A DNA stretch of 64,000 nt from a candidate division FCPU426 bacterium (GTDB taxonomy: Bacteria; Oederibacteriota; Muellerivitia; Muellerivitales; Muellerivitaceae): assembly GCA_963719085.1 (NCBI GenBank), contig CAVRAL010000001.1, positions 384,001-448,000 on the forward strand. Reading direction: 5' to 3'. Numbering within the stretch: position 1 is the first letter of the stretch; every line of letters begins with the position of its first letter. A program made the translations under genes and the position numbers. Shown here piece by piece: positions 2 through 64,000 of this stretch. The notes beneath the pieces were generated by a model. That model was not told where the DNA came from and did not search any database. It saw nothing but the letters and a program-made list of their open reading frames with translations.

Positions 2-3000
2 TACCCGGATTGGTTGAAATCCGCCCTGTTCAATGAGCTTTATTATTATTTCGCCGGTGGAACCATGTGGGAAGCGGGGGCGGCTTCCGGACAATTAGAT
101 AATCCGAATGAGGACATGTTTTCCAGTTTGGAAAGTTATATCTATCCTTTTTACGGGACCTCGGATGTCCGCTTTTACGCTTCCTGGGCATTGGCTCAAC
201 TGTGGCCCAATGTGGACAAGCAGGAAGTCGAGCAGTTTTGCGATAGCGTGACCACGACCCGATCCGATCGGCCCGCCCCTCTGGGCAGCTGCGCCCATGA
301 TTTTGGCGCTCCGATCAGCGTTTTCCAACAATGGGATTCCTACGGCACCAGCGCGCTGAATTGGAAAGACTTGAATTCAAAACTGGTTTTGATGGTCTAC
401 CGGGATTGGAATTTGACCGGAGCGTCGGATACCACCTTCCTCAATTATTGCTGGCCCGCGATTCAGACGGCCATGAATAAGGTCCACAGTGAATGTGACG
501 CCAGCGGTCTTCCGGTGGACAGCGGTCCGGACCAAACTTATGACACCATTAATTTGACGGGTAATTCCGCCTATTGCGGCGGTCTTTTCCTGGCGGCCTG
601 CGAGGCGGCCCAGCAAATCGCCTTGGCCGAAGGCAACCCGACCCTTGCCGCCACTTACCAGTCCTGGTTCAACGCGGCCCAGCCCAATTTTGAATCCTTA
701 TTATGGAACGGCAGTTATTACAACATTGATACGGGCAGCGGCGCGGGCGTTTCCGGGGTGGGCCGGATTATGGCGGACCAGCTTTGCGGCCAGTGGTACG
801 CCAAGGCCTGCGGCCTGCCGGGAATCGTGTCGGACGCCCATGCCGTCAGCGCCTGGCAAAAAGTGCACGATGCCAATTGGTCGGGATTCGACGGCGGGGC
901 CCATGGGGCGGTCAATATCTTGAACGGCAACGGAACGCAGAATTTTTCCGATAACGAAAGCGAGGAGGTCTGGGCCGGCACTAATTGGGGCATCGTGGCG
1001 GGGATGGTCCAACAGGGAATGACCACTCAGGCCGCCGACATCGGCAGCAGCGTCTACAATACGGTTTGGAATCTGGGCCAATGGTGGTTCCGCACGCCGG
1101 AAGCCTGGCAGGCCGGCTTGACCAATATGCGGGCGCCTTACTATATGCGGGCCAACGCGGTCTGGGCGGTCAAGCGGGCTTATGACTTCCAACTCGCTCC
1201 GCCTTCCTGCGGGAGCATGACCTGCACCCCGACGCCGACCTTTGCCCTGCCGCCGACCCTCACGCCCACCATCACCTTTACGCCGTTGCCTTGTCTAAAC
1301 TTTGGGACGAGCCCCACTTTCACCGCTACGAGTACCCCTACCCCGGGAACCTACATGGGAAATCAATTCTTGGCTACGTCATCGACCATCAAGTCTTTCA
1401 ATAATAACTCCTTGGTCTTTTCCAGCCGATTTACCGCCCAAAGAACGGATTCGGTGGCTTCGGTAAAACTTCTTTTTAGTTCGGCTGTGGGCAATCCATC
1501 ATATGTTCTTTCGATCCAGGGCGATCAAGGCGGTAACCCCAATGGCGTTCCCTATTGCGATATTTCCAACCCGGTTGCGATGAGCGGTTTCGCTGGCTGG
1601 CAGCAATTTAATTTCAGCGTTCCGGTCCAACTTATTTCAGGGAATGTATACCACTTGGTCCTCCAATGGAGCGGTTTGGGGAATTCTTTGGCGACTTCAA
1701 ATATGGTGGGCTTCGTGGCAGGAACCGCCCCCTTAAACCGGTATTATCCTTTCGATTTGGTGCAAGATTCGGCCTTAAATTTCCTGTCCAATACCGGATC
1801 GGGTTGGACCGTGAATGGTCTGCAACCTATTTTTGAGATTAATTATTCCTCGGGCGCTATAGAGGGCAATCCTTACAACGGGCAAACGAGTTACGCAATT
1901 GACAATCTATATGTAAGGGCGGAACAGTTCTCGGTGGGACCCGATCCGATGACGGTTACCAGTGTTGGCGCTTATGTGAATGCCCTCGGCGGACCTCCGG
2001 CTGATGACCTCCATTGGGAATTTCGCACCGCGGGGAATAACACGGTCATTCCAGGGGAATCGGGTATTCTGGCTCAGGCCAGCCAAGTGCCCATGGCGGG
2101 CGGATGGGTGGACAAGTCTATTTCGCCGGTGGTCTTGGCGCCCGGAAATTATATCTTTGCCTTGAGCGCTCCCGCCGCCACCGACAGCCTCGATTACGGT
2201 TGGGGCGAGACGCGTAGTTCCTCAGGCACTTCATCAGAGGAACCGGCTTTAAGCTATGGGGGAGCTAATTGGTTTGGGCTTATCTCCCAGGATGGGGGAA
2301 ATAGCTGGTCTTCCGACCTGAACGGTGATTTTTGTTTCCGGATGGGGCAGAATCAAACACCGACAGTGACCCCCATCGGGACCGCCACGGCCACTCCATC
2401 GTTTTCATGGACTCCGACCTTGACGCCCAGTGGAACCCCCACCGGGACTTCCACCCCTGATCCAACCGATACCTTAACCGCTTCGGCCACGCCGGACCCC
2501 ACCGATACCGCTTCGCAGACGCCAACCCCGGACCCCACGGATACTCCAAGCGACACACCTACCTTCACTGTTTCCGATACCCCGACCGAGACGCCGACTC
2601 CAACGGAGACTGCGACGGAGACTTGGACCGCTTCCGCCACGGCTTCGGCCACGCCGGACCCCACCGATACCGCTTCGCAGACGCCAACCCCGGACCCCAC
2701 GGATACTCCAAGCGACACACCTACCTTCACTGTTTCCGATACCCCGACCGAGACGCCGACTCCAACGGAGACTGCGACGGAGACTTGGACCGCTTCCGCT
2801 ACGGCTTCGGCCACGCCGGACCCCACCGATACCGCTTCACAGACGCCAACCCCGGACCCCACGGATACTCCAAGCGACACACCTACCTTCACTGTTTCCG
2901 ATACCCCGACCGAGACGCCGACTCCAACGGAGACCGCGACGGAGACTTGGACCGCTTCCGCAACCGCCTCAGCGACGCCGGATCCCACGGATACATTAAC

Positions 3001-3814
3001 CGCGACCCCGAGCGCAACGCCCACCGCGACCTTCACCGCCTCGGTTACCCCGACAGCGTCATCGACCGCGTCCTTCACTCAAACCGCGACGCCGACTCCC
3101 ACAGCCACGCTTACACCCACAAAAACACCGACCAGCTCACCCACGAATACCGTGACTTTGACCCCGACCCCGACAATGACCGCTACCAAAACCTCCACGC
3201 CTACCCCCAATTTTACCCCGACGAAAACCCGGACTGCCTCCATTACCCCTACGGCAACGGTGACGGCAACGCCGACCAAAACCCCCGCGGCCCCGACGGC
3301 GACCCTCACCAAGACGCCGACGATTACCCGAACCTTCACGCCGACAATCACGAAAACTCCCACCAAAACCCCGACAAAAACGCCCACCAAGACGCCGACG
3401 CCCAAGGCCGGGAAGGCCTTTTCAAGCCAAGCGGTTATTTTGGATCCGGAGCAGACACTGACCCCCGCGCCTTTCGAAACCAGGCCGCCGGATGCGACCC
3501 CCACGCCTACTCCGGTTTTATCTCCCGGCCCGTTGGTTTCGGTTTGGCCGAATATTTCCCGCAATGGCCAGGCTTTGCATTGGCGGTTATGGCTGACGGC
3601 GCCTGCTCTCATCGACATAAAAATTTTCGACGTGACCGGGGAATTGGTTTATCAAATGAAACTGCCGGGTTCGGCTGGGATCAATGACATTCCCTGGGAG
3701 CTTCAAAATTTATCCGGCAGACCCGTGGCTTCCGGTTTGTACATTTATTGGGCGCAGATAAGCTCCGGAACCGTCGCAGGGCATCAATCGGGGCATGTGG
3801 TCGTTCTGAATTAA
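2..3814 (+). CDS. GH116 (GBA2-like beta-glucosidase/glucosylceramidase) catalytic domain + two beta-sandwich modules + Thr/Pro-rich stalk + T9SS-CTD/FlgD-like C-terminal domain; 5'-truncated
   Basis: Frame is open from base 2 ([15 protein letters not shown]). GH116-type motifs: [61 protein letters not shown]. Long TPT tract, ending WPN...[11 protein letters not shown]...[15 protein letters not shown]. Confidence 0.85.
2481..2966 (+). repeat. Three near-identical tandem 162-bp (54-aa) repeats inside the Thr/Pro-rich linker
   Basis: Unit CTTCGGCCACGCCGGACCCCACCGATACC... starts at 2481, 2643 and 2805. Protein unit [54 protein letters not shown]. Confidence 0.97.
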
Positions 3815-3963: not shown

Positions 3964-6075
3964 ATGGGCTTCAAAAAATATTTTTTCAATGACGCTCCTT
4001 GGGTTTGTTTTTTTATTTTTCTCGTTTCCAACCTCCTTCTTTCAAATTCAGGGGTGCCCCTTTCCATTAAATTAGTCGTATTCATTTTTGGAATCCTCGC
4101 GCCGCTGGTTTTTCTCGCTCGGCGGCCCATGGAGCCGAACTCATGGGCCGGCCGGGATTTTTTGCCCTCCGCCTCGACCGGAGTTTGGTTTCTTTTGGGT
4201 TTGGCCGCTGTTTTTATCCGTTTTTATCATTTGGAAACCCTTTTTTCCTGGCCCAATACGGATGAGGGGTTGTACGGGGTCTTGGCGATCGATCAGGATC
4301 AAAAATGGTCTTGGCGTTTTTTTTATACCTTCGGCCAAAATCCACCCCTCCTCGTTTGGGTTCTCAGCTTCTTTTTCAGGATATTCAAATCCCCCTTCTT
4401 GGCCCTGTGGCTTTTACCGGCTTTGGCTTCCACGCTCACCATCGGTTTTTTTTATCTCGCCCTTCGCGCCTATTTCTCAAAATCCATTGGCTTCATCGGG
4501 TTTTGCCTGATGGCTTTCAGCCTCTGGCCCTTTTACTTTGGCCGTTGGTGCCACGCGGGCGCGCTGATTCCGCCCTGGGAATGTATTTGCCTTTGGTTGT
4601 TGGCGATTTTTTTAAAGGAGGCGGATTTTTCCCGTAAGAAAAAATGGGCCGGGTTATTGGGGTTTGCCGTCGGATTGGGCTCCCTGACTTTTACTCCCTG
4701 GCCCTTCGCGGCCTTGGCGTTAATAGCCGCTTTCGGGGCGTCCGTGCTCAACGACGCCCGGAAAAATAGAGTTTTGATCTTTTATTTTGGAATTCCTTTT
4801 TTCGCCGCCTTGATTCCTTTCTTCATCGGGGTTTGGCGGGAGGGATACGGCGAGCATATCGAGGCTATGGCGGCTTGGAGCGGGTGGTTTGCCTTGACGC
4901 GGCAGGGTTTGACCATCGTTTCTTACGGGGCATCGCTTTTTTGGGGGACCTTGGAAGGGGACTCCATTTATACCGCGGATTCCGGCGGGATGTTAAACCC
5001 TGTTTGGGGGGCGGCTTTCTTCCTGGGAGCCGCCCAGCTTTACCGCGAAAGGGCCAAAGTCTGGGCCCGGTGGACGGCCCTGTCCTTTTTCATTTGCCTG
5101 CTTCCTGGATTTTTTTCAATGAACGTGGAAATGTTCCGGGTGATCCAGGTTCTTCCTTTTCTCTTGGGAATCACCGCCCTGGGTTTGGCGGTCCTTTTGG
5201 CCCGAATCCCAATACCCTGGCGCGGCGCGGCTTTTTTTATTTTGGCGGCTCTGAGCGCGGGAATGGATGGGACCACGGTTCTCCGGGCCCATGGCCTAAA
5301 CCCGGATTCGGCCGCGGCGGCGCGAAGCGGCCTGCCCCTGGGCGAAATAAGAGCCTATAAAATACTGAAAGACACCAGCGTCCATTTTGGAAACGGATTG
5401 ATTTTCACTGAATTTTCGCAAAGCGCTTTCGACCAAACGCCCTTTGTCACCAGCTACGGTTTCAACTGCGCCGAGAATCCGAAACTGGATCCCGCGAAGG
5501 CCCAATGGGCGGCGGTTTTAACCACGGTGGACTATCGGGATTTTTTGAGCCCTCGATTTACCGGCGCCCGCTGGTTTTGGCTGGACCCGGACGTCCCTTC
5601 GGGGAAGACCCTGTTGGGGCTCATTCCGGTCAACCCCGACAACCGCGCTCTTTTAACCCGGTGGACCCAGGCCCATCATTATTTCCGGGAACTCAGCCGG
5701 GGGATTTTCAATATCCAAGGGGACGCGACTTGTTTGGCGGCGGAAAATCTAATTGAACAACCGCCTTCCATCCTTCAAGGGGACCGGTTTTTAGAATCCT
5801 GTTATTGGCGGAGGCGGGCGCAGTTTTATTACGACCACAATTACGCGGTCCACTATCAGGACCAATTGGACGCGCTCAAACAGGCTGTCGCCGAGGGTTA
5901 TCCCACTTCCGATTTGGATTATCAACTCGGAAGTCTTTTGCTTCGAAAAAAGGAATGGCGGGATTCACGGGCGGCTTTTGAAGCGGCCTTGCGTTTGAAC
6001 CCGGGCGACCCGGACGTGAAGTCGGCCTTGAATTTATTAACGTTCAGGGAAAAAGAAGTCGGGGACAAAAAATAG
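3964..6075 (+). CDS. GT-C fold membrane glycosyltransferase (ArnT/PMT, GT39/GT83-like) with C-terminal TPR
   Basis: Many TM helices, RFYHL...WPNTDEGLY acidic DE motif in the first loop, QNPPL motif, C-terminal TPR-like YQLGSLLLRKKEWRDSRAAFEAALRLNP. Confidence 0.75.
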   Translation: MGFKKYFFNDAPWVCFFIFLVSNLLLSNSGVPLSIKLVVFIFGILAPLVFLARRPMEPNSWAGRDFLPSASTGVWFLLGLAAVFIRFYHLETLFSWPNTDEGLYGVLAIDQDQKWSWRFFYTFGQNPPLLVWVLSFFFRIFKSPFLALWLLPALASTLTIGFFYLALRAYFSKSIGFIGFCLMAFSLWPFYFGRWCHAGALIPPWECICLWLLAIFLKEADFSRKKKWAGLLGFAVGLGSLTFTPWPFAALALIAAFGASVLNDARKNRVLIFYFGIPFFAALIPFFIGVWREGYGEHIEAMAAWSGWFALTRQGLTIVSYGASLFWGTLEGDSIYTADSGGMLNPVWGAAFFLGAAQLYRERAKVWARWTALSFFICLLPGFFSMNVEMFRVIQVLPFLLGITALGLAVLLARIPIPWRGAAFFILAALSAGMDGTTVLRAHGLNPDSAAAARSGLPLGEIRAYKILKDTSVHFGNGLIFTEFSQSAFDQTPFVTSYGFNCAENPKLDPAKAQWAAVLTTVDYRDFLSPRFTGARWFWLDPDVPSGKTLLGLIPVNPDNRALLTRWTQAHHYFRELSRGIFNIQGDATCLAAENLIEQPPSILQGDRFLESCYWRRRAQFYYDHNYAVHYQDQLDALKQAVAEGYPTSDLDYQLGSLLLRKKEWRDSRAAFEAALRLNPGDPDVKSALNLLTFREKEVGDKK

Positions 6076-6170: not shown

Positions 6171-7328
6171 TTATAAAGCCAATTCCGGGAAATAAAACCT
6201 CAAAATCTTCCGCCAATCCCAGCCTTTTTTGGCCAGCGCGAGGGCGCCGTCCTGGCAAAGGCCCACGCCGTGGCCTTGGCCCCGCCCCTCAAAATAATAA
6301 GTGTCCCCGGATCGCTTCCAAGTAAACCAAGCGCTGGGAAAAACCCGCCAGCCATTGTCCTTGCCGAATTGGGAAATGAACTTTTGCGCGTTAATCCGCC
6401 TGTCCCGGGGGGGAGCGTCCGCGGCCGTGAAAATCGCCTCGAAGGTTTTATCGCGGCCGCCGGGGGTTTTTTCCAAGACCCGCCAGGATAATAACTTCGT
6501 TCCCGGAGGCAAGCCGGCCGTTTCGACCAGGGCTTTTTCCACCTGGGGCGCGGGCGCGGAAGTTTTCCAACGATAAGACGCCCCGCCTTGGCACAGCGTC
6601 TCGCCGTTGAGCTCATCCCGGGTCCGGGCAATGGGCTCGGACGCGCCGCCCCAAATGTCCCCGGCTGAATCCAGCGTCCCGCCGCAGTTTCGATGGAAAT
6701 AATAATTGGGATGGGTTCCGGCGGCGGGAGCGGGAACCCCGGAGACCGTTTGGGCCACGTCGCGCCAATAGTCCATTCGTTGGGGTAGCCCCTCATATAA
6801 GAGGCAGTGGGCCAGGTCGCAGTAGTCATAACGTAAATGCCGCATGCGGTGGGTGAGGGCGTAGAGGCGCACCAACGCGGCGAGGGATTTGTCGTACTCG
6901 GGCCAGAGGCCATGGGGGTCGTCCGACTCCGCCGCGGACACGCAGGCCACGTAATCGTCCAGGCTGGGGTGGTTGAGGATTTGAAGTTCGGGTCCCGAAG
7001 CCTCGTTAAACAAGCGAATGGACAGGGTCCCGGGATAAACGCGGGTCATTTGGTTTACTTTAATTTTACAAAAACCGCCGACCCGGCCCCAAAGAGCCCC
7101 GGAACGGGCTTTGCCGTTGACCCACAAAAATCCACGTGATAATTTTACTTCGTCCCAAGGGCCCTGGCCCGAGGGGGTTTGAATCAAGATCGAGGCGGGG
7201 TTCAGTTTTTCCAGTATTCGGACCGAAAGGTCCGCGTCTTGCGCCGAGGCCTTGAGCGCCCAAGCGAAGACCGTGAGGAATCCTAAAAGCAGTTTCTTAT
7301 TTTTAACTGTCAGTCTATTTAACCGCAT
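6171..7328 (-). CDS. SpoIID/LytB-domain lytic transglycosylase-like protein, exported
   Basis: Signal peptide from the ATG at 7328. Motifs LDDYVACVSAAE, YDYCDLAHCLLYEG, YFHRNCGG and GRGQGHGVGLCQDGA...WRKILRFYFP. Confidence 0.88.
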   Translation of the reverse strand: MRLNRLTVKNKKLLLGFLTVFAWALKASAQDADLSVRILEKLNPASILIQTPSGQGPWDEVKLSRGFLWVNGKARSGALWGRVGGFCKIKVNQMTRVYPGTLSIRLFNEASGPELQILNHPSLDDYVACVSAAESDDPHGLWPEYDKSLAALVRLYALTHRMRHLRYDYCDLAHCLLYEGLPQRMDYWRDVAQTVSGVPAPAAGTHPNYYFHRNCGGTLDSAGDIWGGASEPIARTRDELNGETLCQGGASYRWKTSAPAPQVEKALVETAGLPPGTKLLSWRVLEKTPGGRDKTFEAIFTAADAPPRDRRINAQKFISQFGKDNGWRVFPSAWFTWKRSGDTYYFEGRGQGHGVGLCQDGALALAKKGWDWRKILRFYFPELAL

Positions 7329-7356
7329 CCACGATATCTTACAGGAGATTTCCCCT

Positions 7357-10300
7357 ATGAAAAAGATTCTCGCTATCTGGGCCGCCATCGCCCTTCCGTT
7401 GGGCCTTGTTTTTCTCGCGGTGCGCTGGGCCAACCATCCCAACCTCGCGGCTTTTTTCCTTCATCCGGGCTTGTCTTTCTTTTTGGTTTTTGTTTTCGCG
7501 CTTTACTTGATCCGCCGATTTTTGCTGGTGAAGCCCGGTTTGTATGTCCGGGGGTTTGGAATTTGGCTGGCGGTGCGTTATTTCACCCAGTGTTTTTCCA
7601 CGAACAACGTTCCCAGCCAAAATGACCTGGCTTTAGCCGCTTGGTCTTTTTACGCCGCCCTGGCGGGCGCCTCGCTTTTTTTCCTGGGAATGGAAGAGTT
7701 CGAGGGCCTGGCGTTGAAAGTTTTGAAACGTAAAAAACTTCCGGCCTTTCTGGGCGCGGTCCTACTGGGCCTCTTGGCGGCCTTGGTGTTTGGGGGCGCC
7801 AACGCCTCGGGCTATGGTTTGTCTTCCCGGATCTTGTTTCTTTTAGCCGGCGGTTTTTGCGTCCTGGGCGCTTTGATCCGCGCCTATATTCTCAAGGCGG
7901 ACCCGGAGTACCTCACCGGGTTTGTTTGGCTTTACCTGGCCCTGAAACTGAATACTTTATATTCGCCTGGTTTTGTTCCCTCGATTCATTTCCCCATGAA
8001 CTGGCTTTTTAACGCGCATATCTTTTTTTCATTTTTGGTCTATGTCTTTTGGGAAAAACTCCTGCAGCCCAAGTCCAAGGCCCGGATTTTTATCGGCGCT
8101 TTCGCCGTCGCCGGTTTTCTTTTCACCTTTTTCCTGCAATCCACCCTTTGGACCTGCCAAATCCTGATCGTGGCGGGCTTGCTGATGTGGAATCTGGGCT
8201 GGGATAAAAAAACCGCCCAGCTTCCTTGGGTGGTGAAAGCGCGGGCCTGGGCTCAAAAGATTTTGGCCAACCCGAAATTGAAAATGCTGGTCGACAAGTC
8301 CGGGAAAAAGGCCGCTTCGTTGGGGGGCCTTTTAGCCGCCTGGTCGAAAAAGCCGGTGGTGAAATGGTCGGCCGCGGGTTTGGCCGGGTTGGTGGTTTTG
8401 GCCTTGCTGGGCAATCTGGTTTATCAAATGTTGTCGACTTACGTGATCAGCTTTACCCCCGCGGGCACGTTGACTTCTGCCAGCACCGTGATCCGGGTGA
8501 AATTTTCCAATGACATTACCGTGGCGGGAACCCTGGACTCGGCTTTCCAAATAACGCCGCCGCTTCCCGGGACCACCCGTTTGGAAGACTCCAAAACCTT
8601 GGTTTACACCCCCGGGGCGCCTCTTTTACCGGCCACCACTTATCGGGTGAGGCTGGATACTTCCGAACTGCGGGCTAAATCCTTATTTCTCCAGGGAAGC
8701 GCTAAGACGGTTTTCGCCACCGAGCCCTTTCAAGTGGTCAGCAACCGGCTTTTCTATACCTACGATCTGGTCAAGGGAACCGAGAAGGAATTGGTGGGGG
8801 AATTGGAGTTTAATTACCCGGTGGAGCTCCAGCGCCTGAATCAGGCCTTGAGCGTGACCCGGGGGAACCAATCGCTGGCTTTTTCCTTGGAACCCGGAAC
8901 CCTTCCTACGCGGTTTTTCTTTAAGGCCGGGGGGCTGACCCGTGATTTTGATCCCCAGGTCCTGACGGTCAAGATCAGCGGGGACCTTTCTTGCGTGGAT
9001 TGCGGAAACTCCCTTGCCAAACCTTTCCAGACCACCCTGGTGCTGCCCGCCCGGCCCAAGATGCGGGTCAACCAGGTTCAACTCCATCATGAGCCGGGCA
9101 ACACCCTGATCTCGATTCTTTTCACCCTGCCGGCTTCGGCCGCCGAAGTGAAGAACAACGTCACGATTACGCCCGCCGTGCCTTTCACGGTCCAGACCGA
9201 GTATTGCTACGCGGTCCTTCGGGCCGACTTCCAACCCAACGTGAGCTATCAAGTCAAAATCAGCAAGGGGCTCCGCGCCCAGTCGGGCGAGATTTTGGAC
9301 AATGATTATTCCCAGGCCCTTCAACTGCAAGACGTCCAGCCTTATGTGCGTTTCGCCGACCCGGGCCGTTTGATCCCGCTGGCGGGCGGCAAGCGGGTCG
9401 CGGTGAAGACGATGAATTTGGACGCCTATTCGGTGCGGGTGGTAAAGGTATTCCGGAACAACCTGGTGGATTTCCTGAAACGGGTCCATACCTACAGCAA
9501 TGAGGACTATAACGGCGGCGAGTCTTATTCCTACGTGGAAGGCGATACCGACAGCATCGGCTCCCAGGTTTGGAGCGGCAATGTGACGGTGGAAGGCGGA
9601 CAAATTAATCAGGAAGTGGAAACCGACCTGGATTTTTCCAAATGGCAGTCCGCGCCCTATAAAGGGCTTTTCGCGGTTTATTTGAACGGCTCCGACGGCG
9701 GGGGACAAGACGCCCGTTGGTTCGCGGCCACGGACTTGGGGCTTTTGACCAAACGCTCCGGAAACGATTTGTGGGTGCAGGCGATTTCCATCTCCACCCT
9801 GGCTCCCGCGGCGGGCGCCCATCTGCAGTTGTTGTCCGACAATAACCAGGTGATCGCCGAGGCGGATACGGATTTGGACGGCCGGGCTTGGTTCAAGGAC
9901 ATCAACAATAATCCTTATAAGTTCACCCCCTTTGTGGTGGTGGCCAGTTTGGGCGACGATTGGTCTTTCTTGTCGCTCAATGACTCGCCTTTGGATCAAT
10001 CCCGTTTTGACATCGGCGGCGACCCTTTCAGCACCGAAGGCTGGGATTCTTTCGTGACGTCGGACCGGGGTTTGTACCGTCCCGGCGACACGGCCCATTT
10101 CACCGCCATCGTGCGGCACGCGGACCTGAAAACGCCCGAAGCCTTGCCGGTCAATTTGGTGGTGACGGACGCGGCCGGGAATCCGGTTTCCAAATTGGTT
10201 TCCAAACTGCAAAAAGGCGGACTGACGACTTTTGACCTGCCCGTTCCCCTGGATCTCTCGACGGGGACGCTGAACGCCGCGCTCCAGCTTGAGAACGGCG

Positions 10301-13300
10301 TGCAGTTGGGTTCCACTTCCATTAAGGTCGAGGAATTTATCCCGGCCAAGATCAAGGTGCAGGTTTCCTCGCCCCAGAAGACGGCCAACGCGGGGGAACA
10401 GCTCAGCTTCCAGGTTCAAGCCCGCTATCTTTTCGGAGCCCCGGCGGCCAATTTACAGGTCCAGTCGGTGGTCCATTTGTCCGCCCAGCCCTTTACCAGT
10501 AAGGATTGGGCCAGCTATCAGTTCAGCGATTCCAGCCGGGTTTTCGACGGCGAGGATCTCCAGGTGCCCAATGGCCTGACCGATGACTCCGGAAACCAAA
10601 CCGTTCAGCTTCCGGTCCCGATTTCCATGCTGCCTCCCTCGATGATGAAGGCTGTGGTCTATACCGAAGTGCTGGACAACGGCGGCCGCGCGGTGGGCGC
10701 CAACGCGGTCATCAACGTCCATCGCTATCCTTATTACCTGGGGCTCAAGGCACTGCCGGGCAAGGAGGTGGGTCCGGGTACCAAGGTGAGGATGAAGTAC
10801 GTGGCCATCACGCCTGATGGGAAGCCTACCACGGTGACCCAGGTCAACTTGATCGTCAAACGCAAGGTTTGGTATTCCATCTTCCGCGACAGCGGATGGT
10901 CGGGCTCGGGGACGGAGTCTTCTTATTACGAGGAAGTCATCCTGGGTAAACAAGTGGACATCCACGGCAAAGGCGGTTTTACCTTTACGCCCGATAAGCC
11001 GGGGGAATACACCGTGTATTTGGGCAATGAGGACTCCATGCGCAGCGCCTTGACGGTCGTCGTGTCGGGCCCGGGCGGCGCGCCGGCGGCCAACACAAGC
11101 TCCGACTTGGAGCTGCCGGGACGGTTGTCGCTGATTTTAAACCAGCCTTCTTATGCCGTGGGCGCCGTGCCCAGGGTTGAGGTGCGGGCACCTTTCGCCG
11201 GACGACTCATCCTGACCCTGGAACGGGAAAAGGTTTTTTACACCAAAAGTTTGGAAGTGCCCTCGGGCTTGAGCGTGGTGAGCCTGCCGCCCACGGATGA
11301 GAATGACCTGCCCAACGCGTATGTGGTGGGCCTGCTGGTGAGGAAGCCCGACGAGTCCATGCGCCGACTGCCCATGGCGTCGTTCGGCGTGGTTCCCTTG
11401 AACCTGGACGCTTCCACCCGGCAAATTGACCTGAAGTGGACCACGGCTGATTCGGTTAAGTCCAAAGACGGCATCGATGTTCGTTTGGACACGGGCCATC
11501 CGGGCTCCCAGGTCGTGTTGTCGGCGGTGGACGAGGGAATCCTTCAGATCGTGTCCTTCGCCACTCCCGATCCGTTCAAATATTTCTACCGCAAACGCGG
11601 GATGACCACGTCCACCTACAGTCTTTTCGACCAAGTGCTGCCGAACCTGGGGCAAAAGCTGGCCGTGGGCGGCGACGAGGGCGAGGGCTTCAAGGCCCGC
11701 AACCTCAATCCAGTGGCGGCCAAACGGGTGAAGAGCTTCGCCCAATTCACCGGCATTTTGACCGCGGATGAGACGGGAACCATCACTTACCATTTCCCCA
11801 CGAAAGAATTCCACGGGGAAGTGCGTTTGATGGCCTTGGCAGTGGACGGCGATAAATTCGGCGGTTCCTCCTTTAAGGTGCAGGTGGCCGACCCCGTGGT
11901 GGTGGAGCCTTCGTTCCCCCGGTTTTTGGCGCCCGGCGATAATTTTGACGTGCCCGTTTTGGTTTATAACCACGCCAAGCAGGCGGAGTCGGTGGCGGTG
12001 AAGCTTTCGCAGACCGGCCCCGTGGCGGTGGATGGCGGCGACCAGCAGTCGGTGGAACTGGAGCCGGGGGACCAAAAACAGCTCATCTTCCACGCCAAGG
12101 CGCTGATGGCCGCGGGTGTGGCCGACTTTAAAGTCTCGGCCACCGACCAAAACGATCAAACCTATGACGTGGATACGGAACTTTCGGTGCGGCCGGGGAA
12201 TCCCCTGACCACCGAGATCAAATACGGCCAGTTGAACGCCCAGGACAAGGTCAAATTGCCGGTTCCGGGCGGGTTTATCCCCCAGGGTCAGCGGGTGCGG
12301 TTGGCGGTGTCGTCCAGTCCGCTGCTGACTTTCCTGGGCAGCCTGGATTACCTCATTAACTATCCTTACGGCTGCGCGGAGCAGATGACCTCGCAGGCCT
12401 TTCCCTTGCTTTATTTCAAGGACATGGGCCTTTTGACCGGACGGTTTGAGGACCGCGCCAACGCGGTGGATATGTTCATCCAAGCGGCCGTGGATAATTT
12501 GTGCAAACAGCAATTGGAAGACGGGACCTTCGCCCTTTGGGCCGGGGAAAATGAGAGCGGCGGGGATTACCTGTCCAACTATGTTTCCCATTTCCTGTTG
12601 GAAGCCAACCGGCTGGGATACAACGTGCCCCAGGACGCCTTGGACAAGGTGACCCAAAGGTTAGGGGCCATCAATGTTCAAGGGCAGGGGGACCGGCTTG
12701 ACCGGCGCCAGCAAAATGTCGAGCTTCCGGACAGCGCCTACATCCTTTATTTAAGGACGCTGGCCGGGAAACCCGATCTTCAGTCGATGGCGGCTTTCCG
12801 CGATGATTTGAAAAACCGCTCCTTGACCGACCGGTGTTTCTTGTCCTTGGCTTACTCCAAGATCGGGGACCGCGCCACGGCCGCCGCGCTTTTGCCCCCG
12901 CATTACACGCCCACCAGCCTGGAGCGGGCGCTGGGCGGCGACTGGTTCTCGCCGAACCGGGAAAGGGCGATTTATCTTTACGCCTTGGCTGAGGCTTCGC
13001 CCCAGTCCCCGGAGATTCCGGTTTTAATCCAGGCCTTCGGCCAGGCGCTGAAGGACGGGGCTTTCCATTCGACCCAGGAAGACGCTTGGGCCTTCATGGC
13101 CATCGGTCAAGCGGTAAAGGCCAGCACCCAAGCCGAGCCATTGACCGGCGCTTGGTCGATTCCCGGCGGGACCGCGCACGCCTTGGCGGGCGACAACGCC
13201 TCCGTGAAGGACACCGCCCTTTCGGGCAAGGAGGTCACCTTGAGTAATTTGGGCGACCAGCCTTTCTATTACAACTTGATGGGCGAAGGCACGCGGTTGG

Positions 13301-13755
13301 AGCAGGAAAAGGGGAGCGTGGCCAACGGTTTGAGCGTTGTCCGGGAATACCGGGATGAAAAAGGCGGCTTGGTCAATTTAGGCTCGGTCACTCAGGGTGA
13401 ACTGGTAGTGGTCACCTTGCGGATTCATTGCGCGAAGCCTTTGGACAACCTAGTGGTCGTGGACCTGCTTCCGGCCGGCTTGGAAGTGGATAATCCCCGG
13501 CTGTCCTCGCGCGGAAGCCTGGGTTTCGACCCCGAGTGCAGTTTCCAGCCTGTGTCGGAGGATTTCCGGGACGACCGGGTTCTTTTGTTCTCGAAGGACG
13601 TGGACGGGGATCTGAGCTTTTCCTACAGCGTGCGCGCGGTTACGCCGGGCCGGTTCCAGGTTCCGGGCGTGAGCGCGGAAGCCATGTATGATCCGGATAT
13701 TTTCGGCCGGTCCGGTCCGGGCGACGAACTGATCGTCGCGCCCTTTAAGTTTTAA
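7357..13755 (+). CDS. Bacterial alpha-2-macroglobulin with an N-terminal polytopic membrane domain
   Basis: AGGAG RBS at 7343. TDLGL, SDRGLYRPGD, VEEFIP, LSAVDEGIL, FPRFLAPGD, thioester YPYGCAEQ (Cys codon 12373), VVDLLPAGLEVDN, EDFRDDRV, YSVRAVTPGRF...AEAMYDP. Confidence 0.95.
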   Translation: MKKILAIWAAIALPLGLVFLAVRWANHPNLAAFFLHPGLSFFLVFVFALYLIRRFLLVKPGLYVRGFGIWLAVRYFTQCFSTNNVPSQNDLALAAWSFYAALAGASLFFLGMEEFEGLALKVLKRKKLPAFLGAVLLGLLAALVFGGANASGYGLSSRILFLLAGGFCVLGALIRAYILKADPEYLTGFVWLYLALKLNTLYSPGFVPSIHFPMNWLFNAHIFFSFLVYVFWEKLLQPKSKARIFIGAFAVAGFLFTFFLQSTLWTCQILIVAGLLMWNLGWDKKTAQLPWVVKARAWAQKILANPKLKMLVDKSGKKAASLGGLLAAWSKKPVVKWSAAGLAGLVVLALLGNLVYQMLSTYVISFTPAGTLTSASTVIRVKFSNDITVAGTLDSAFQITPPLPGTTRLEDSKTLVYTPGAPLLPATTYRVRLDTSELRAKSLFLQGSAKTVFATEPFQVVSNRLFYTYDLVKGTEKELVGELEFNYPVELQRLNQALSVTRGNQSLAFSLEPGTLPTRFFFKAGGLTRDFDPQVLTVKISGDLSCVDCGNSLAKPFQTTLVLPARPKMRVNQVQLHHEPGNTLISILFTLPASAAEVKNNVTITPAVPFTVQTEYCYAVLRADFQPNVSYQVKISKGLRAQSGEILDNDYSQALQLQDVQPYVRFADPGRLIPLAGGKRVAVKTMNLDAYSVRVVKVFRNNLVDFLKRVHTYSNEDYNGGESYSYVEGDTDSIGSQVWSGNVTVEGGQINQEVETDLDFSKWQSAPYKGLFAVYLNGSDGGGQDARWFAATDLGLLTKRSGNDLWVQAISISTLAPAAGAHLQLLSDNNQVIAEADTDLDGRAWFKDINNNPYKFTPFVVVASLGDDWSFLSLNDSPLDQSRFDIGGDPFSTEGWDSFVTSDRGLYRPGDTAHFTAIVRHADLKTPEALPVNLVVTDAAGNPVSKLVSKLQKGGLTTFDLPVPLDLSTGTLNAALQLENGVQLGSTSIKVEEFIPAKIKVQVSSPQKTANAGEQLSFQVQARYLFGAPAANLQVQSVVHLSAQPFTSKDWASYQFSDSSRVFDGEDLQVPNGLTDDSGNQTVQLPVPISMLPPSMMKAVVYTEVLDNGGRAVGANAVINVHRYPYYLGLKALPGKEVGPGTKVRMKYVAITPDGKPTTVTQVNLIVKRKVWYSIFRDSGWSGSGTESSYYEEVILGKQVDIHGKGGFTFTPDKPGEYTVYLGNEDSMRSALTVVVSGPGGAPAANTSSDLELPGRLSLILNQPSYAVGAVPRVEVRAPFAGRLILTLEREKVFYTKSLEVPSGLSVVSLPPTDENDLPNAYVVGLLVRKPDESMRRLPMASFGVVPLNLDASTRQIDLKWTTADSVKSKDGIDVRLDTGHPGSQVVLSAVDEGILQIVSFATPDPFKYFYRKRGMTTSTYSLFDQVLPNLGQKLAVGGDEGEGFKARNLNPVAAKRVKSFAQFTGILTADETGTITYHFPTKEFHGEVRLMALAVDGDKFGGSSFKVQVADPVVVEPSFPRFLAPGDNFDVPVLVYNHAKQAESVAVKLSQTGPVAVDGGDQQSVELEPGDQKQLIFHAKALMAAGVADFKVSATDQNDQTYDVDTELSVRPGNPLTTEIKYGQLNAQDKVKLPVPGGFIPQGQRVRLAVSSSPLLTFLGSLDYLINYPYGCAEQMTSQAFPLLYFKDMGLLTGRFEDRANAVDMFIQAAVDNLCKQQLEDGTFALWAGENESGGDYLSNYVSHFLLEANRLGYNVPQDALDKVTQRLGAINVQGQGDRLDRRQQNVELPDSAYILYLRTLAGKPDLQSMAAFRDDLKNRSLTDRCFLSLAYSKIGDRATAAALLPPHYTPTSLERALGGDWFSPNRERAIYLYALAEASPQSPEIPVLIQAFGQALKDGAFHSTQEDAWAFMAIGQAVKASTQAEPLTGAWSIPGGTAHALAGDNASVKDTALSGKEVTLSNLGDQPFYYNLMGEGTRLEQEKGSVANGLSVVREYRDEKGGLVNLGSVTQGELVVVTLRIHCAKPLDNLVVVDLLPAGLEVDNPRLSSRGSLGFDPECSFQPVSEDFRDDRVLLFSKDVDGDLSFSYSVRAVTPGRFQVPGVSAEAMYDPDIFGRSGPGDELIVAPFKF

Positions 13756-13760
13756 GCCAA

Positions 13761-13790
13761 GCCCGCCCCGGTTTTGAAGCCGGGGCGGGC
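13761..13790. repeat. GC-rich intergenic hairpin between the macroglobulin gene and pbpC
   Basis: GCCCGCCCCGG-N8-CCGGGGCGGGC perfect 11-bp stem with no immediate U-tract. Confidence 0.6.
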
Positions 13791-13850: not shown

Positions 13851-16223
13851 ATGAAGCCGCTCCGCCCTCTATTTTTACGTTCCTGGCTCCGTTGGACCGC
13901 CTTGGGCTTGGCGGTTTTAGCGGGGTTTTACCTGTGCCTGCGTTTTTCCCCCTTGCCCGAGATGAAATTAAAAAAAGACTATTCCACGGCCTTCCTGGCT
14001 TCGGATGGGACTTTACTCCGGCTCACCCTGTCGCCCAGCGGGAAGTACCGCCTGCCGCTGGAACTGGAACAAGTGTCGCCCCAAGTGACGAAGGGATTCA
14101 TCGCTTATGAGGACCGTTGGTTTTGGTGGCACCCGGGCGTGAATCCAATCTCCGCGCTGAGGGCCTTGGCGCTGAATCTTTCCCGAGGCAAGGTTTTGGC
14201 GGGCGCGTCCACCTTGACCATGCAGGTAGCCAAACTCCTGGACCCCCGCCCGCGGACCTACGGGTCCAAACTTTTGGAAACATTTCGGGCGCTTCAATTG
14301 GAAGCTCGTTATTCCAAAAAACAAATCCTGGCTTTTTATTTAAACAGCGTGCCCATGGGCGGCAATATCGAGGGCGTGGGGGCCGCGTCCCTCCTTTATT
14401 TTGGAAAACCCGCCCAGTCCTTGTCCTGGGGCGAGACGGCGCTTCTTATCAGCCTGCCCAAGTCGCCTTATTCCCGGCGGCCGGACCGGTTTCCCGATCG
14501 GGCGCGGGAAGGACGGGACAAGGTTTTGCGCCAAATTATCCCGGCGCTCGGTCTTTCACCCGGGGAGGCCCGGGAAGCTTTTCAAGCCGCCGTGCCTCAG
14601 GGCCGTTTTGTGAATCCCTCGCCCGCGCCCCAACTGGCCCGCCGGGCCGCCTATCTTTCGGGAAAACCTTTCGGCGTGATTGAGCTGACCATCAAGCCCG
14701 AGCTTCAGGGGCTGGCCCAGCATGTTTTGTCCGCCGCGGTGGCCCGGCTTAAAATCCAAGGCGCCCACAACGGGGCCTTGATGATCGTGGACAACCATAC
14801 CCGGCAGGTTTTGGCTTACGTGGGGAGCCCGGATTTCCACGACCCCCACGGCGGGCAGATTAACGGGGCCAATATCCTGAGGTCCCCGGGCTCGGCCTTG
14901 AAGCCCTTTCTTTACGGCCTGGCCATCGATCAAGGCGTCTTGACGCCCAAAAAAATCCTCTACGACATCCCCCGGGATTACGGCGGCTACAAGCCGGCGG
15001 ACTATGAGGGCTCTTACGAGGGATTGGTGACGGCGGAGGAGGCGCTTTCCACCTCGTTGAATATTCCGGCGGTGGGGTTGGAGTCCCAGTTGGAGCCGCT
15101 GAACGGCGGTTTGGGACAATGGATTAAACGGGCGGGATGCGTGGGACGGGGGCGGGACCAACTGGATCCCGGGCTTTCGGTGGCGCTGGGCGCCTATCCG
15201 GTGAGCCTGGAAGAAATGATGTCGCTTTACGCCGCGCTGGCCAATGGGGGCGAGTGGAAGCCCTTGGTCTTTTTTAAGGATGGCCGTGATTCCGGCCGGG
15301 GAACGGGCAAGGCCCTGCTTTCGCCGGAGGCTTGTTTTATGGTCTGCGAGATGTTGTCCCAAGTGGAGAGAACCGATATCCCCGCTTCCTGGCAGTTCGC
15401 GCCTTCGTTGAGCAAAATCGCCTTTAAGACGGGGACTTCCTTCGGCCACCGGGACGCTTGGTGTGTGGGCGTGACGCCGGATTACACCATCGGCGTGTGG
15501 CTGGGCAACGCCGATGCCCAAGGGGTTCCCGCGCTGGTGGGCCATGACGCGGCGGCGCCCATCGTGATTGATCTTTTTGATCAATTGACCCGGACCAATG
15601 ACCAGTGGTTCAAAAAACCGCCGGGCGTTCAGATCCGCAAAGTGTGCGCCTTATCGGGAGATCCGGCGGGGGACGATTGCCCCGAATCCATCGACGATTA
15701 TTTTATCCCGGGGGTGAGCGACAACCAGCCTTGCCCGATCCATCGGCGGGTGTGGCTGCGCAAGAAAGACGGGTTGGAGGTCTGTCATTACTGCATGACG
15801 GGAAAACCGCAGGACTATCAAAGCCGGGTGTTTGAGGTTTGGCCGCCTGATGTGACGCGTTTTTTAAGGAGCCATGGGCAAAAATTCGAGGCCATTCCGG
15901 CGCACAACCCGGCTTGCGCTTATTTCAACCAGGGTGAAAAACCACGGCTCACGTCACCCAACCCCGAGGGGCATTATGAGCTGGTCTCGGGCATTCCGCT
16001 GGAAGATCAGAAACTCACCCTGTCGGTCCAAGCGGGGCCCGATGTGGACCAGGTTTATTGGTTCGTCAACGGCGATTTGGTGGCCCAATCCAAGCCCGAC
16101 CAGCTTTCTTTTTGGCAATTGCGTCCGGGCCGGTGGGATGTGTCCGTCATTGATTCCCGGGGACGGGCGGATAAAACCTCGATCCTGGTGACGCCTTCGA
16201 AGGATTCGGCCGCCGCCCATTAA
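13851..16223 (+). CDS. pbpC: Penicillin-binding protein 1C
   Basis: Transglycosylase motifs EDRWFWWHPGVN and GASTLTMQVAK; transpeptidase SxxK (GSALK), SLN, KTGTS; Cys-rich C-terminal region; directly downstream of alpha-2-macroglobulin. Confidence 0.93.
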   Translation: MKPLRPLFLRSWLRWTALGLAVLAGFYLCLRFSPLPEMKLKKDYSTAFLASDGTLLRLTLSPSGKYRLPLELEQVSPQVTKGFIAYEDRWFWWHPGVNPISALRALALNLSRGKVLAGASTLTMQVAKLLDPRPRTYGSKLLETFRALQLEARYSKKQILAFYLNSVPMGGNIEGVGAASLLYFGKPAQSLSWGETALLISLPKSPYSRRPDRFPDRAREGRDKVLRQIIPALGLSPGEAREAFQAAVPQGRFVNPSPAPQLARRAAYLSGKPFGVIELTIKPELQGLAQHVLSAAVARLKIQGAHNGALMIVDNHTRQVLAYVGSPDFHDPHGGQINGANILRSPGSALKPFLYGLAIDQGVLTPKKILYDIPRDYGGYKPADYEGSYEGLVTAEEALSTSLNIPAVGLESQLEPLNGGLGQWIKRAGCVGRGRDQLDPGLSVALGAYPVSLEEMMSLYAALANGGEWKPLVFFKDGRDSGRGTGKALLSPEACFMVCEMLSQVERTDIPASWQFAPSLSKIAFKTGTSFGHRDAWCVGVTPDYTIGVWLGNADAQGVPALVGHDAAAPIVIDLFDQLTRTNDQWFKKPPGVQIRKVCALSGDPAGDDCPESIDDYFIPGVSDNQPCPIHRRVWLRKKDGLEVCHYCMTGKPQDYQSRVFEVWPPDVTRFLRSHGQKFEAIPAHNPACAYFNQGEKPRLTSPNPEGHYELVSGIPLEDQKLTLSVQAGPDVDQVYWFVNGDLVAQSKPDQLSFWQLRPGRWDVSVIDSRGRADKTSILVTPSKDSAAAH

Positions 16224-16986: not shown

Positions 16987-17016
16987 AAAGCGCGCCTTTT
17001 ATGGCGCGCTTTTTTT
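16987..17016 (+). terminator. Rho-independent terminator overlapping the stop of the convergent acyltransferase
   Basis: AAAGCGCGCC-TTTTAT-GGCGCGCTTT followed by a T-run. Confidence 0.75.
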
Positions 17017-18156
17017 ATTCCGGCTCCAGTAGGTCTGTAATTTTTTTTGGATAAACTGATTGAAGGGCATCTCAAAAAAGACCCAGGAAATTTGGGCAAT
17101 CGCTATCACGGTACAACCGTACAGCAAGGCGTAAAAAAAGATCGCCCAGCCGGAAAATAGGGGTAGGAATACCAGAAAAAAGGAATGAAGAAGGTATATG
17201 CCGTAGCTTAATCTGCCGGGCGCGGAAACTAATCCCAAAAAACTTTTGTTGAAGAAATCCCAATGCAATCCTCCTAGCAAAAAGAGTACGGCGCCGGCCG
17301 AAGCCACGGTAGGGGCGAATACCCGGTCCCAATCGCGACTCCAATAATTCGTGAATAGGGCCAAAACCAAGATCAGGCTGGCCCCATAAAAACAAAACCG
17401 TCCGGCAGCGGCTTGGTTTTCGTTGAAGAAGGGTCCCAACTTTTCGGTTAGAAGAAACAAGAGTACGCCCGCGGCGATTTGGTCAAAAGCCCCAAACGAG
17501 CTCTCAATGGCCAAGGGTACCGATTGAGGGTAGTTCGAATAGGCCCACCAGCGGAATAAAAAGGCGAAGATTACTAAGCAGAGGAGAAATCCTACGAGTT
17601 TTTTTCGGGTTCCCAATAGCAACAGGCAGACGGGGAAAAAAAGGTAGAATTGTTCCTCGACGGCGAGTGTCCATAAAACCCGCCATTGGGCGAACCAGGT
17701 GGAGCTATCGTGAATACTCACGAGGATTCGATGCCAATTGAAAAAGAAAAAGAAAATAGAACACCAAAAACTGGGTCCCAACGCGGCTTGATCCGGATGG
17801 ACCCATTTCAGGGAAGGTGACGAGGGGTTTCCGAAGCGCAGGAGCAGCAGGCCCACGATCGTAAAAACGACCAATAGGGGAAATAGGCGGGCGAACCGTC
17901 GGGAATAAAAATCCTTAAAGTCGGGGTTGTAAAGGCCACCTGGGCATTTGGACAGCACCTGGGTAATCAGGAAGCCGGACACCACGAAAAAGAGTGTGAC
18001 GCCCTCGTGCCCCGCCCCGAGTAAAAAGTCTCTAAGTTTCTCCACCCCCCTGGAATGTGCGTGAACCGCCTGGAAATAATGGCCGAACAAGACAGAAAGC
18101 ACGGCCAGGCTCCGAACGAAGTCGATGGCCTGGGATCGGACGGGGGCTATTTTCAT
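16999..18156 (-). CDS. Acyltransferase family 3 (OafA/YrhL-like) membrane O-acyltransferase
   Basis: IDFVRSLAVLSVLFGH, GVTLFFVVSGFLIT, FYSRRFARLFP, LWTLAVEEQFY, GRLSYGIYLLH. Confidence 0.92.
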   Translation of the reverse strand: MKIAPVRSQAIDFVRSLAVLSVLFGHYFQAVHAHSRGVEKLRDFLLGAGHEGVTLFFVVSGFLITQVLSKCPGGLYNPDFKDFYSRRFARLFPLLVVFTIVGLLLLRFGNPSSPSLKWVHPDQAALGPSFWCSIFFFFFNWHRILVSIHDSSTWFAQWRVLWTLAVEEQFYLFFPVCLLLLGTRKKLVGFLLCLVIFAFLFRWWAYSNYPQSVPLAIESSFGAFDQIAAGVLLFLLTEKLGPFFNENQAAAGRFCFYGASLILVLALFTNYWSRDWDRVFAPTVASAGAVLFLLGGLHWDFFNKSFLGLVSAPGRLSYGIYLLHSFFLVFLPLFSGWAIFFYALLYGCTVIAIAQISWVFFEMPFNQFIQKKLQTYWSRNKKSAP

Positions 18157-18250
18157 TGGAGTAACCCTCTTGGTTTTGCCGGGATTATAATTGTTTGAGG
18201 GTTTTTGCCAAAGGGGATTCATGGGAGGCCGATAATGTTAGACTATCCCC

Positions 18251-63699: not shown

Positions 63700-64000
63700 A
63701 GCTCAAAAAACGACGCTTTGAATCTGGATGGATGATTCGGGCATTGGTTTATGTTTTGGAAAGGATCCGCCGTCGAAAAAGGCTTTTGTTTTCAACCGCC
63801 GGTTTCGACGAACCGAGGAATACCAGGAACCTTTTTGGCCCGGAATCTTTTTCATCGATTGAAATCTATTCCAGGGAGGCGTCGGCTTCGAACCCGGCCT
63901 TAACCCGAGTGGAAATCGAAAAGTTTAAAAACAAGGGATGGGTGGGGACCTATCCGCTGCTGACTCCCCGGGGCGGGCGTCTTTTGTTAAGCGTGCATGA
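63696..64000 (+). CDS. 3'-truncated ORF, possibly PhyH-family dioxygenase
   Basis: ATGA overlap with the previous stop; frame open to the window end; LTRVEIEKFKNKGWVG resembles the LT.E.I..F...G. start of PhyH proteins. Confidence 0.5.
   Translation, partial: MKLKKRRFESGWMIRALVYVLERIRRRKRLLFSTAGFDEPRNTRNLFGPESFSSIEIYSREASASNPALTRVEIEKFKNKGWVGTYPLLTPRGGRLLLSVH

Follow-up and report, generated by a model that had tools for sequence, protein, structure and literature searches.

How is a periplasmic protease trap held at the inner membrane when its protein carries no site for a lipid anchor? The question is raised by P0001, which is encoded in a 64,000-nucleotide stretch of DNA from a candidate division FCPU426 bacterium (the window: positions 384,001 to 448,000 of the forward strand of contig CAVRAL010000001.1, assembly GCA_963719085.1) and in which an alpha-2-macroglobulin (A2M) follows, in a single reading frame, a membrane domain of some 360 residues. 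Type I A2Ms trap proteases covalently following bait cleavage. In the published accounts consulted, type I A2Ms are lipoproteins and the type II protein MagD is anchored in trans by MagB, a protein with a single helix; for ECAM, PMC3328433 describes a signal peptide plus a lipobox. P0001 matched neither arrangement, and we compared its membrane domain and its A2M body, their occurrence in relatives and the genes around them.

An integral membrane domain in place of a lipoprotein anchor

The features of the gene, in coordinates of the window, were as follows.

7343..7347, + strand: AGGAG, Shine-Dalgarno-like, read in the sequence, with a spacer of 9 nt to the ATG at 7357
7357..13755, + strand: P0001, fusion of a membrane domain with a type I A2M, 2132 aa, stop-free frame
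7357..8199, + strand: polytopic part, transmembrane helices TM1-TM10 (residues 1-281), from hydropathy, AlphaFold2 helices and Lys+Arg bias; no Pfam or NCBIfam family
8200..8352, + strand: Lys-rich cytoplasmic linker (residues 282-332) with 12 Lys+Arg and two amphipathic helices, from the AlphaFold2 model
8353..8433, + strand: last transmembrane helix (residues 333-359), N-in and C-out, predicted from hydropathy, AlphaFold2 and charge count to export the A2M body
8443..8670, + strand: Big_5 immunoglobulin (Ig)-like domain (residues 363-438), the first periplasmic domain, Pfam PF13205, E 1.5e-8
9727..10698, + strand: bMG3, MG2 and bMG5, Pfam E 2e-21, 2e-18 and 1e-21
11128..11550, + strand: A2M bait-region domain, Pfam PF07703, E 8.6e-22
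12373..12384, + strand: CAEQ thioester motif (residues 1673-1676), read in the sequence
13327..13698, + strand: bMG10, C-terminal (residues 1991-2114), Pfam PF17973, E 1.3e-25

The open frame on the + strand spans 7252-13755, and the single uninterrupted open reading frame (ORF) that a sequence-only reading of the locus had drawn from the AGGAG-preceded ATG was recovered unchanged, running from 7357 to 13755 with no stop. All Pfam domains of P0001 (Big_5, bMG3, MG2, bMG5, the bait-region domain, A2M and bMG10) lay within residues 363-2114. The thioester motif was intact, as that reading had also stated, and CAEQ was likewise found in all four full-length relatives inspected. Among proteins of solved structure, the body (residues 361-2132) matched, over nearly its whole length, Salmonella SaA2M (4u48; E 2.6e-103) as well as YfhM/ECAM of E. 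coli (4rtd, 5a42 and 4ziq; E about 1e-101); NCBIfam gave no match for the whole of P0001 or for its N-terminal part. Based on the CAEQ motif, the bait-region and MG domains, the homology to solved members and the adjacent pbpC gene, we concluded that the body is a type I A2M. Its sequence shows the features expected of an ECAM/SaA2M-like protease trap, and covalent trapping is predicted. A type II identity (MagD/YfaS) was ruled out by the presence of CAEQ and by the neighbouring genes, which are pbpC and a SpoIID-like gene and not mag genes.

The likeness to the characterised members is therefore close in the body and stops at the anchor. Like ECAM/YfhM and SaA2M, P0001 has the CxEQ thioester, the bait-region domain, the MG domains and an adjoining pbpC, and its body is homologous to theirs over residues 265/269-1765/1770 of its 1772 aa; like ECAM, it is presumably periplasmic at the inner membrane. 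Unlike in ECAM and SaA2M, about 265 residues of the body, including Big_5, precede the alignment, which begins at residues 90-128 of those proteins. Unlike ECAM, P0001 has no lipobox and has instead a 359-aa integral membrane domain of about 11 helices. The type II MagD of P. aeruginosa is without CxEQ, belongs to a six-gene mag operon and depends on MagB (one predicted helix) for anchoring in trans, whereas P0001 has the thioester, a pbpC partner gene and an anchor of about 11 helices in cis. The lipoprotein anchor marks the characterised type I members and not the domain family, and single-helix anchors occur among the database homologues.

That the two parts belong to one gene is, in our judgement, virtually certain. 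Contigs of the sequencing runs X2, X3 and X4, which come from three studies, extended from the linker through the last helix into the beginning of the Ig-like domain with substitutions only and no gaps (8242-8477, no difference; 8225-8514, 16 substitutions; 8280-8430, 11 substitutions), so that the junction at 8300-8500, singled out in the sequence-only reading as the place where read support mattered, is bridged by independent contigs over 8225-8514 without indels. The run contigs leave parts of 7300-7470 uncovered, which has no bearing on the fusion either way. The ratio of nonsynonymous to synonymous substitution rates (dN/dS) of the membrane part was 0.16, 0.21 and 0.22 in three genome pairs, values well below 1 that indicate a translated and constrained sequence; the corresponding range for the A2M body was 0.09-0.12, and the membrane part evolves about twice as fast as the body.

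The contrary explanation is that assembly or annotation joined two genes, or that the true start lies downstream and yields a protein with a single-helix anchor, and the feature that speaks for it is an in-frame Met at residue 310, ahead of the last helix. As a start, M310 was rejected: it is preceded by no Shine-Dalgarno sequence and the Met is not conserved, and the MKK... N-terminus of P0001 aligns with the starts of its relatives. The contigs without indels and the low dN/dS also argue against an artefact, as does the equal in-frame arrangement of 20 database proteins and 22 loci of the phylum in separate assemblies (see below). Because the extensions of the relatives are in frame and homologous, the fusion is not due to chance; the homologues showed one gene and not two, and we give the artefact hardly any credence.

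Kyte-Doolittle analysis of the N-terminal part of P0001 gave 7-8 strong hydrophobic segments, arranged as a series of segments to residue 281, a Lys-rich stretch and a final segment at about residues 334-358. An AlphaFold2 model from six sequences was unusable (predicted local distance difference test score, pLDDT, 44.1), and the model used was built from 19 alignment rows (pLDDT 74.2; predicted template modelling score, pTM, 0.63). It contained eleven helices of membrane length, at residues 2-21, 39-56, 63-79, 88-110, 127-149, 155-178, 185-202, 212-230, 241-257, 262-281 and 333-359, together with two amphipathic helices in the Lys-rich stretch at 290-304 and 306-330, of low pLDDT in part. The model thereby agrees with the sequence-only account of about ten helices, a Lys-rich amphipathic stretch and a final transmembrane helix, with 10 + 1 helices and a linker at 282-332. 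For an N-in/C-out topology, the cytoplasmic loops together contained 24 Lys+Arg and the periplasmic loops 1, a bias that fits the positive-inside rule and places the A2M body in the periplasm. A count of 11 helices is thus predicted from the AlphaFold2 model in combination with the positive-inside rule.

No lipobox was found in the first 40 residues of P0001, whose earliest Cys is residue 79, in keeping with the earlier proposal that a membrane domain stands where ECAM/YfhM-type proteins have their lipoprotein anchor. Cleavage of helix 1 as a signal peptide was also considered and rejected, there being by eye no small residue at position -3 of the candidate cleavage sites. At the other end of the domain, the first Ig-like domain opens with a conserved ISFTPxG, which abuts the last transmembrane helix with no linker between them.

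Relatives of the membrane domain by itself were sought at the level of family, fold and stand-alone protein. Pfam had nothing on residues 1-360, and at E<=10 six members of the domain gave scattered single matches only. A PDB sequence profile search of the membrane domain returned no match; with its model, Foldseek against the PDB reached a best E of 0.57, VIA-align a best Z of 7.4 to unrelated helical proteins, within the helical-bundle background, and the ESM Atlas a best score of 0.75, which was uninformative. There is accordingly no family or fold match for residues 1-360, an absence that is not proof of a new fold. An exhaustive phmmer search with these residues gave three weak matches, none of which supports a stand-alone domain: a 910-aa fragment of a fusion, a fragment of 151 aa and, on a contig of 1131 nt, a protein of 301 aa. 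Among proteins of 165-910 aa, profile A1 matched only the 301-aa fragment and no stand-alone homologue. A word-index search with residues 1-360 among proteins of 1172-3731 aa returned only P0001 itself, a null that marks the limit of sensitivity of that search because fused relatives exist. Among metagenome contigs no locus was found with profile A1 and one with profile A2, and among genome contigs none. In the open full-text literature (supplements and subscription journals being outside the scope) we found no paper on a bacterial A2M with a multi-pass anchor.

Distribution of the polytopic form

With the 360-aa membrane part as query, matches were obtained in 6 of 41 related genomes, the window's own included. 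A profile of the membrane domain matched 8 of 31 genomes in the family, in 7 of its 17 genera, and 9 of 99 genomes of the phylum; related genomes in these and the following counts are non-independent samples. All eight family matches lay inside an A2M frame, six of these frames being 2012-2349 aa long and two cut by contig ends. In the annotation of the relatives, the only label at JGI was 'uncharacterized protein YfaS (alpha-2-macroglobulin family)'. At one of the loci of this survey (G022, C25:92000-104000) the A2M frame stops early, with 1987 aa and no bMG10, and its end is overlapped by a 375-aa continuing frame, suggesting that the assembly contains a frameshift close to the A2M C-terminus.

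A database search with residues 361-860 gave 40 other proteins, in which the boundary of the A2M body was set by BLASTP and the hydrophobic segments ahead of it were counted. Every one of the 20 full-length homologues at >=33% identity had an N-terminal extension, of 198-634 aa with 4-14 hydrophobic segments. Those at <=30% identity, 18 in number, had a single helix, a signal peptide or a lipobox, and P0028 of this group has a 263-aa extension with one helix. Two further entries, P0020 and P0025, begin inside the A2M body and are uninformative on the extension. The basic stretch ahead of the last helix recurred in the relatives, with a Lys+Arg fraction of 0.11-0.27 in 20 of 21 long extensions and of 0.08 in one. 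In a maximum likelihood tree built from the body's first 900 residues (39 rows, with the fragments P0002, P0020 and P0025 excluded), all 21 polytopic forms made up one clade with a Shimodaira-Hasegawa-like approximate likelihood ratio test (SH-aLRT) support of 100, so that the anchor label changes once on the tree.

The phylum was surveyed through 99 species genomes, 31 of which had a match to the A2M N-region, and the 30 best loci were inspected. A multi-helix extension was present in 22 of the 25 loci at >=34% identity, two of the 22 being cut by contig ends and one (G081) being counted after a non-ATG start was allowed; the loci of G095 and G064 begin at a contig edge and are uninformative on the extension. 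Five loci at <=31% identity had a short N-terminal region, with a lipobox in G036, a single helix in G079 and at most one hydrophobic segment in G009, G047 and G072. The extension occurred in nine family codes (f1, f4, f7, f8, f10, f14, f19, f21 and f23). Based on these data, we concluded that, within the phylum, the polytopic form prevails in this A2M lineage. The statement of the sequence-only reading that the architecture was an unrecognised one holds in that no family model and no description of it were found; it does not hold if taken to mean a one-off, in view of the 22 of 25 orthologous loci that share it, though unannotated. We define here a polytopic-anchored A2M subclade by an N-terminal multi-transmembrane extension that reaches some 200 aa or more, an amphipathic linker of basic character and an N-in/C-out last helix ahead of the first Ig-like domain. 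P0001 fits this definition, as do the 20 full-length close homologues and the 22 loci of the phylum.

Tandem modules in the membrane domain

Within the polytopic part, two copies of a repeated module were located by motif scan and profile-profile comparison.

7456..7803, + strand: first module, about residues 34-149; RRFLLVKP (residue 53) and MEEFE (residue 112) lie in its cytoplasmic loops
7819..8199, + strand: second module, about residues 155-281; its motifs are RAYILKADPE (residue 175) and FWEKLLQPK (residue 231)

By eye, the recurring cytoplasmic motif takes the form [RK]R-x-x-L-x-x-P(E), followed about 58 residues later by W/M-E-(K/E/R) at a helix end. For the comparison of modules, 13 domain sequences (group A) were aligned, split in three by the coordinates of P0011 and compared profile against profile. 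The second and third modules were the most alike (probability 99.3%, E 4e-20), followed by the first and third (81%, E 1.2e-5) and the first and second (46%, E 2e-4), and all three pairwise alignments shared one register. Judged by its sequence, then, the domain is a tandem array of a multi-helix module of about 120-150 aa with cytoplasmic RRxxLxxP and WE(K) motifs.

The number of modules differs between members. By profile comparison P0001 has two, the third being absent, and the sister-genus type of about 500 aa has three; by eye, there are about four motif pairs in P0018, which has the 634-aa extension, and one in the versions of 198-220 aa. On the tree, the sisters and outgroups of P0001 (P0012-P0014) have extensions of 500-553 aa. 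The position of P0001 nested among these proteins points to a loss within its own lineage, and P0001 is probably a two-module derivative from which one module has been lost.

At 26 positions the residue was conserved in at least 11 of the 13 group A sequences, mostly as Trp, Arg or Pro at helix ends, where they are interfacial. These positions include W8, W24, R53, W96, R175, W232, W265, W278 and W282, and further the periplasmic N26-H27-P28, the cytoplasmic E233 and Q268; W232 and E233 were conserved in 13 of 13. A second group of sequences (P0017, P0019 and P0022-24) was linked to group A by hhalign with moderate confidence (82%, E 1e-5), and P0016 and P0018 aligned to group A at 94% and 91%.

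Neighbouring genes and the proposed role

The surroundings of P0001 in the window contained the following features.

14-3814: GH116 (DUF608) protein, 1266 aa, Pfam
3964-6075: PMT_2 glycosyltransferase-like protein, 703 aa, with C-terminal tetratricopeptide repeats, Pfam
6171..7328, - strand: SpoIID-like gene, divergent, with a weak Pfam SpoIID match (E 7e-4) below the cutoff
13761..13790, strand not assigned: GC-rich hairpin, arms of 11 bp, in the gap from the A2M stop to the start of pbpC, read in the sequence
13851..16223, + strand: pbpC, class A penicillin-binding protein of the PBP1C type, Pfam Transgly 1e-48, Transpeptidase 2e-17, BiPBP_C 1e-18
16999-18222: Acyl_transf_3 membrane acyltransferase, Pfam

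Both neighbours named in the sequence-only reading, pbpC downstream and the SpoIID-like gene, were recovered with Pfam, the latter by its weak match; orthologues of the latter in relatives scored 3e-10, 8e-11 and 6e-13 against SpoIID. The gene directly 3' of the A2M is pbpC also in G021 and G012 (family f1), in G027 (f4) and in G031 (f8), and in G076 and G045 no pbpC lies directly downstream among the ORFs listed. The SpoIID-like gene adjoins the A2M in f1 genomes, and in G031 it is located after pbpC. Its start is probably the ATG at 7328-7326, as suggested by alignment of its signal peptide with those of relatives. With about 28 bp between this start and that of the A2M at 7357, the promoter of each gene would lie inside the coding region of the other.

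The hairpin at 13761-13790 might serve as terminator or attenuator, or be a repeat element; one of its arms recurs at 63968-63978, and no clear T-run follows it. The surroundings of the A2M in the window are rich in envelope and glycan genes. In G027, a 398-aa S26 signal peptidase with an N-terminal membrane part resembling DUF6677/DUF5683 precedes the polytopic A2M on the same strand.

The genome that contains the window encodes Lgt, two LspA and proteins of the Omp85 family, from which the cell is presumably diderm and lipoproteins are possible. Lgt adjoins two LspA (Peptidase_A8) frames in tandem, one of 316 and one of 168 aa, outside the window at C1:1423200-1424934. Loss of the lipoprotein pathway as the reason for a multi-pass anchor was ruled out by the presence of Lgt and LspA.

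What the membrane domain does can be approached from its architecture. We consider it fairly probable that the array is a rigid multi-pass pedestal or scaffold for the trap, and neither an enzyme, a transporter nor a classical signalling module. One gene encodes a thioester-containing, pbpC-linked A2M whose anchor is an integral domain of 11 predicted helices and not lipid. The parts of this domain, in order, are an N-terminal helix, two tandem modules, each with an RRxxLxxP loop and an amphipathic WE(K) turn on the cytoplasmic side, a Lys-rich amphipathic cytoplasmic linker and a final N-in/C-out helix, from which the first Ig-like domain emerges right at the periplasmic membrane surface. On the proposal of a pedestal, the array of modules would fix and orient the trap on the inner membrane, near PBP1C. 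A structural role is suggested by the Ig-like domain that stands right after the last helix, by the varying number of motif pairs and by the interfacial position of the conserved residues. The range of extension lengths among the relatives (198-634 aa, with about one to four motif pairs by eye) and the lack of any family, fold or stand-alone homologue in the searches described above are also in favour of a structural and not a catalytic function.

Other functions have to be weighed against this one. The array might be a docking platform that binds the single transmembrane helix of PBP1C, and perhaps that of the SpoIID-like enzyme, or through which the A2M associates with itself. Cooperation of type I A2M and PBP1c in defence of the envelope has been proposed (PMC3328433 and PMC5764988), pbpC is directly downstream in the window and in G021, G012, G027 and G031, and the SpoIID-like gene is adjacent in the f1 genomes and present at the G031 locus. 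However, the classical lipoprotein A2Ms keep the linkage to pbpC with no such domain, so that the linkage does not require it, and G076 and G045 showed no pbpC directly downstream among the ORFs listed; it is synteny that links PbpC and SpoIID to P0001, and we regard docking as the purpose of the array as rather unlikely. A relay has also to be considered, in which bait cleavage or thioester activation would pass through the helices to the cytoplasmic loops and the Lys-rich helices and there recruit or release a partner as a signal of a breach. The most conserved residues include the cytoplasmic R53, R175 and W232-E233 and the periplasmic loop W24-N26-H27-P28 next to the first Ig-like domain, which itself joins the last helix with no linker, and the membrane domain is under purifying selection, all of which would suit a relay. 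Yet Pfam detected no kinase, helix-turn-helix, anti-sigma, GGDEF or other output domain, the loci inspected had no conserved neighbouring regulator, and an apparent variation from one to four motif pairs among relatives would be unusual for a defined conformational relay, which leaves a relay clearly unlikely.

A related and improbable idea is that the modules are a new class of transducer or pedestal in which the RRxxLxxP and WE(K) loops, together with the Lys-rich helices, couple the thioester trap mechanically to the cytoplasmic face. If it were true, an attack of proteases on the envelope would be reported or answered inside the cell, or PBP1C and SpoIID would be gathered at the site, and the protein would amount to a bacterial 'complement receptor in cis'. 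Lastly, the domain might work in the membrane as an enzyme or a transporter, or in the handling of lipids, with nothing in common with the A2M but the polypeptide chain. Like many transporters, it has helices in parallel tandem repeats, and a few of its polar residues are conserved (H27, E233 and Q268). The absence of a Pfam or NCBIfam match even at E 10 and of any PDB sequence match, the Foldseek and VIA-align results, the latter within helical-bundle noise, the lack of a stand-alone homologue in the exhaustive search and among proteins of 165-910 aa, and the variable number of modules all stand against it, and we hold such a function to be very improbable.

Several points count against the proposal of a pedestal or scaffold, or against parts of the case made for it. 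The proposal is itself an argument from the absence of catalytic and output features, and the conserved R53, R175, W232-E233 and periplasmic W-x-N-H-P loop could equally mark a site of binding or relay. The helix count comes from a model of moderate confidence (pLDDT 74, pTM 0.63) and a positive-inside count made by hand. The homologue sets were selected by similarity to the query, and the groups compared were defined by the feature that was counted in them. The extensions of G027, G031, P0021 and P0026 could not be linked to the P0001 domain (hhalign 0.1-58%), and hydrophobic profiles can inflate hhalign scores. One orthologue of 25, that of G061, is without the polytopic part and is frameshifted. 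The frameshift (C150:17251-21189) lies just after the last helix, in G062, a genome from the same genus, the extension is 319 aa long and has 7 segments, and the G061 locus may be a decaying copy or an assembly error.

New in this work are the tandem-module structure, the single clade and the phylum-wide distribution of the polytopic form. The finding opens no long-standing question; its interest lies in a lineage of type I traps that keeps a multi-pass anchor across at least nine families of an uncultured phylum, under purifying selection. It adds a third mode of A2M attachment, beside the lipoprotein and the soluble protein held by a single-helix partner, and a new family of membrane-protein repeats. 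These A2Ms offer a natural system for asking if tethering is all that such an anchor does for an immune-like protein of the periplasm; the candidate additional roles are to orient the trap, to assemble it with PBP1C or SpoIID, and to signal.

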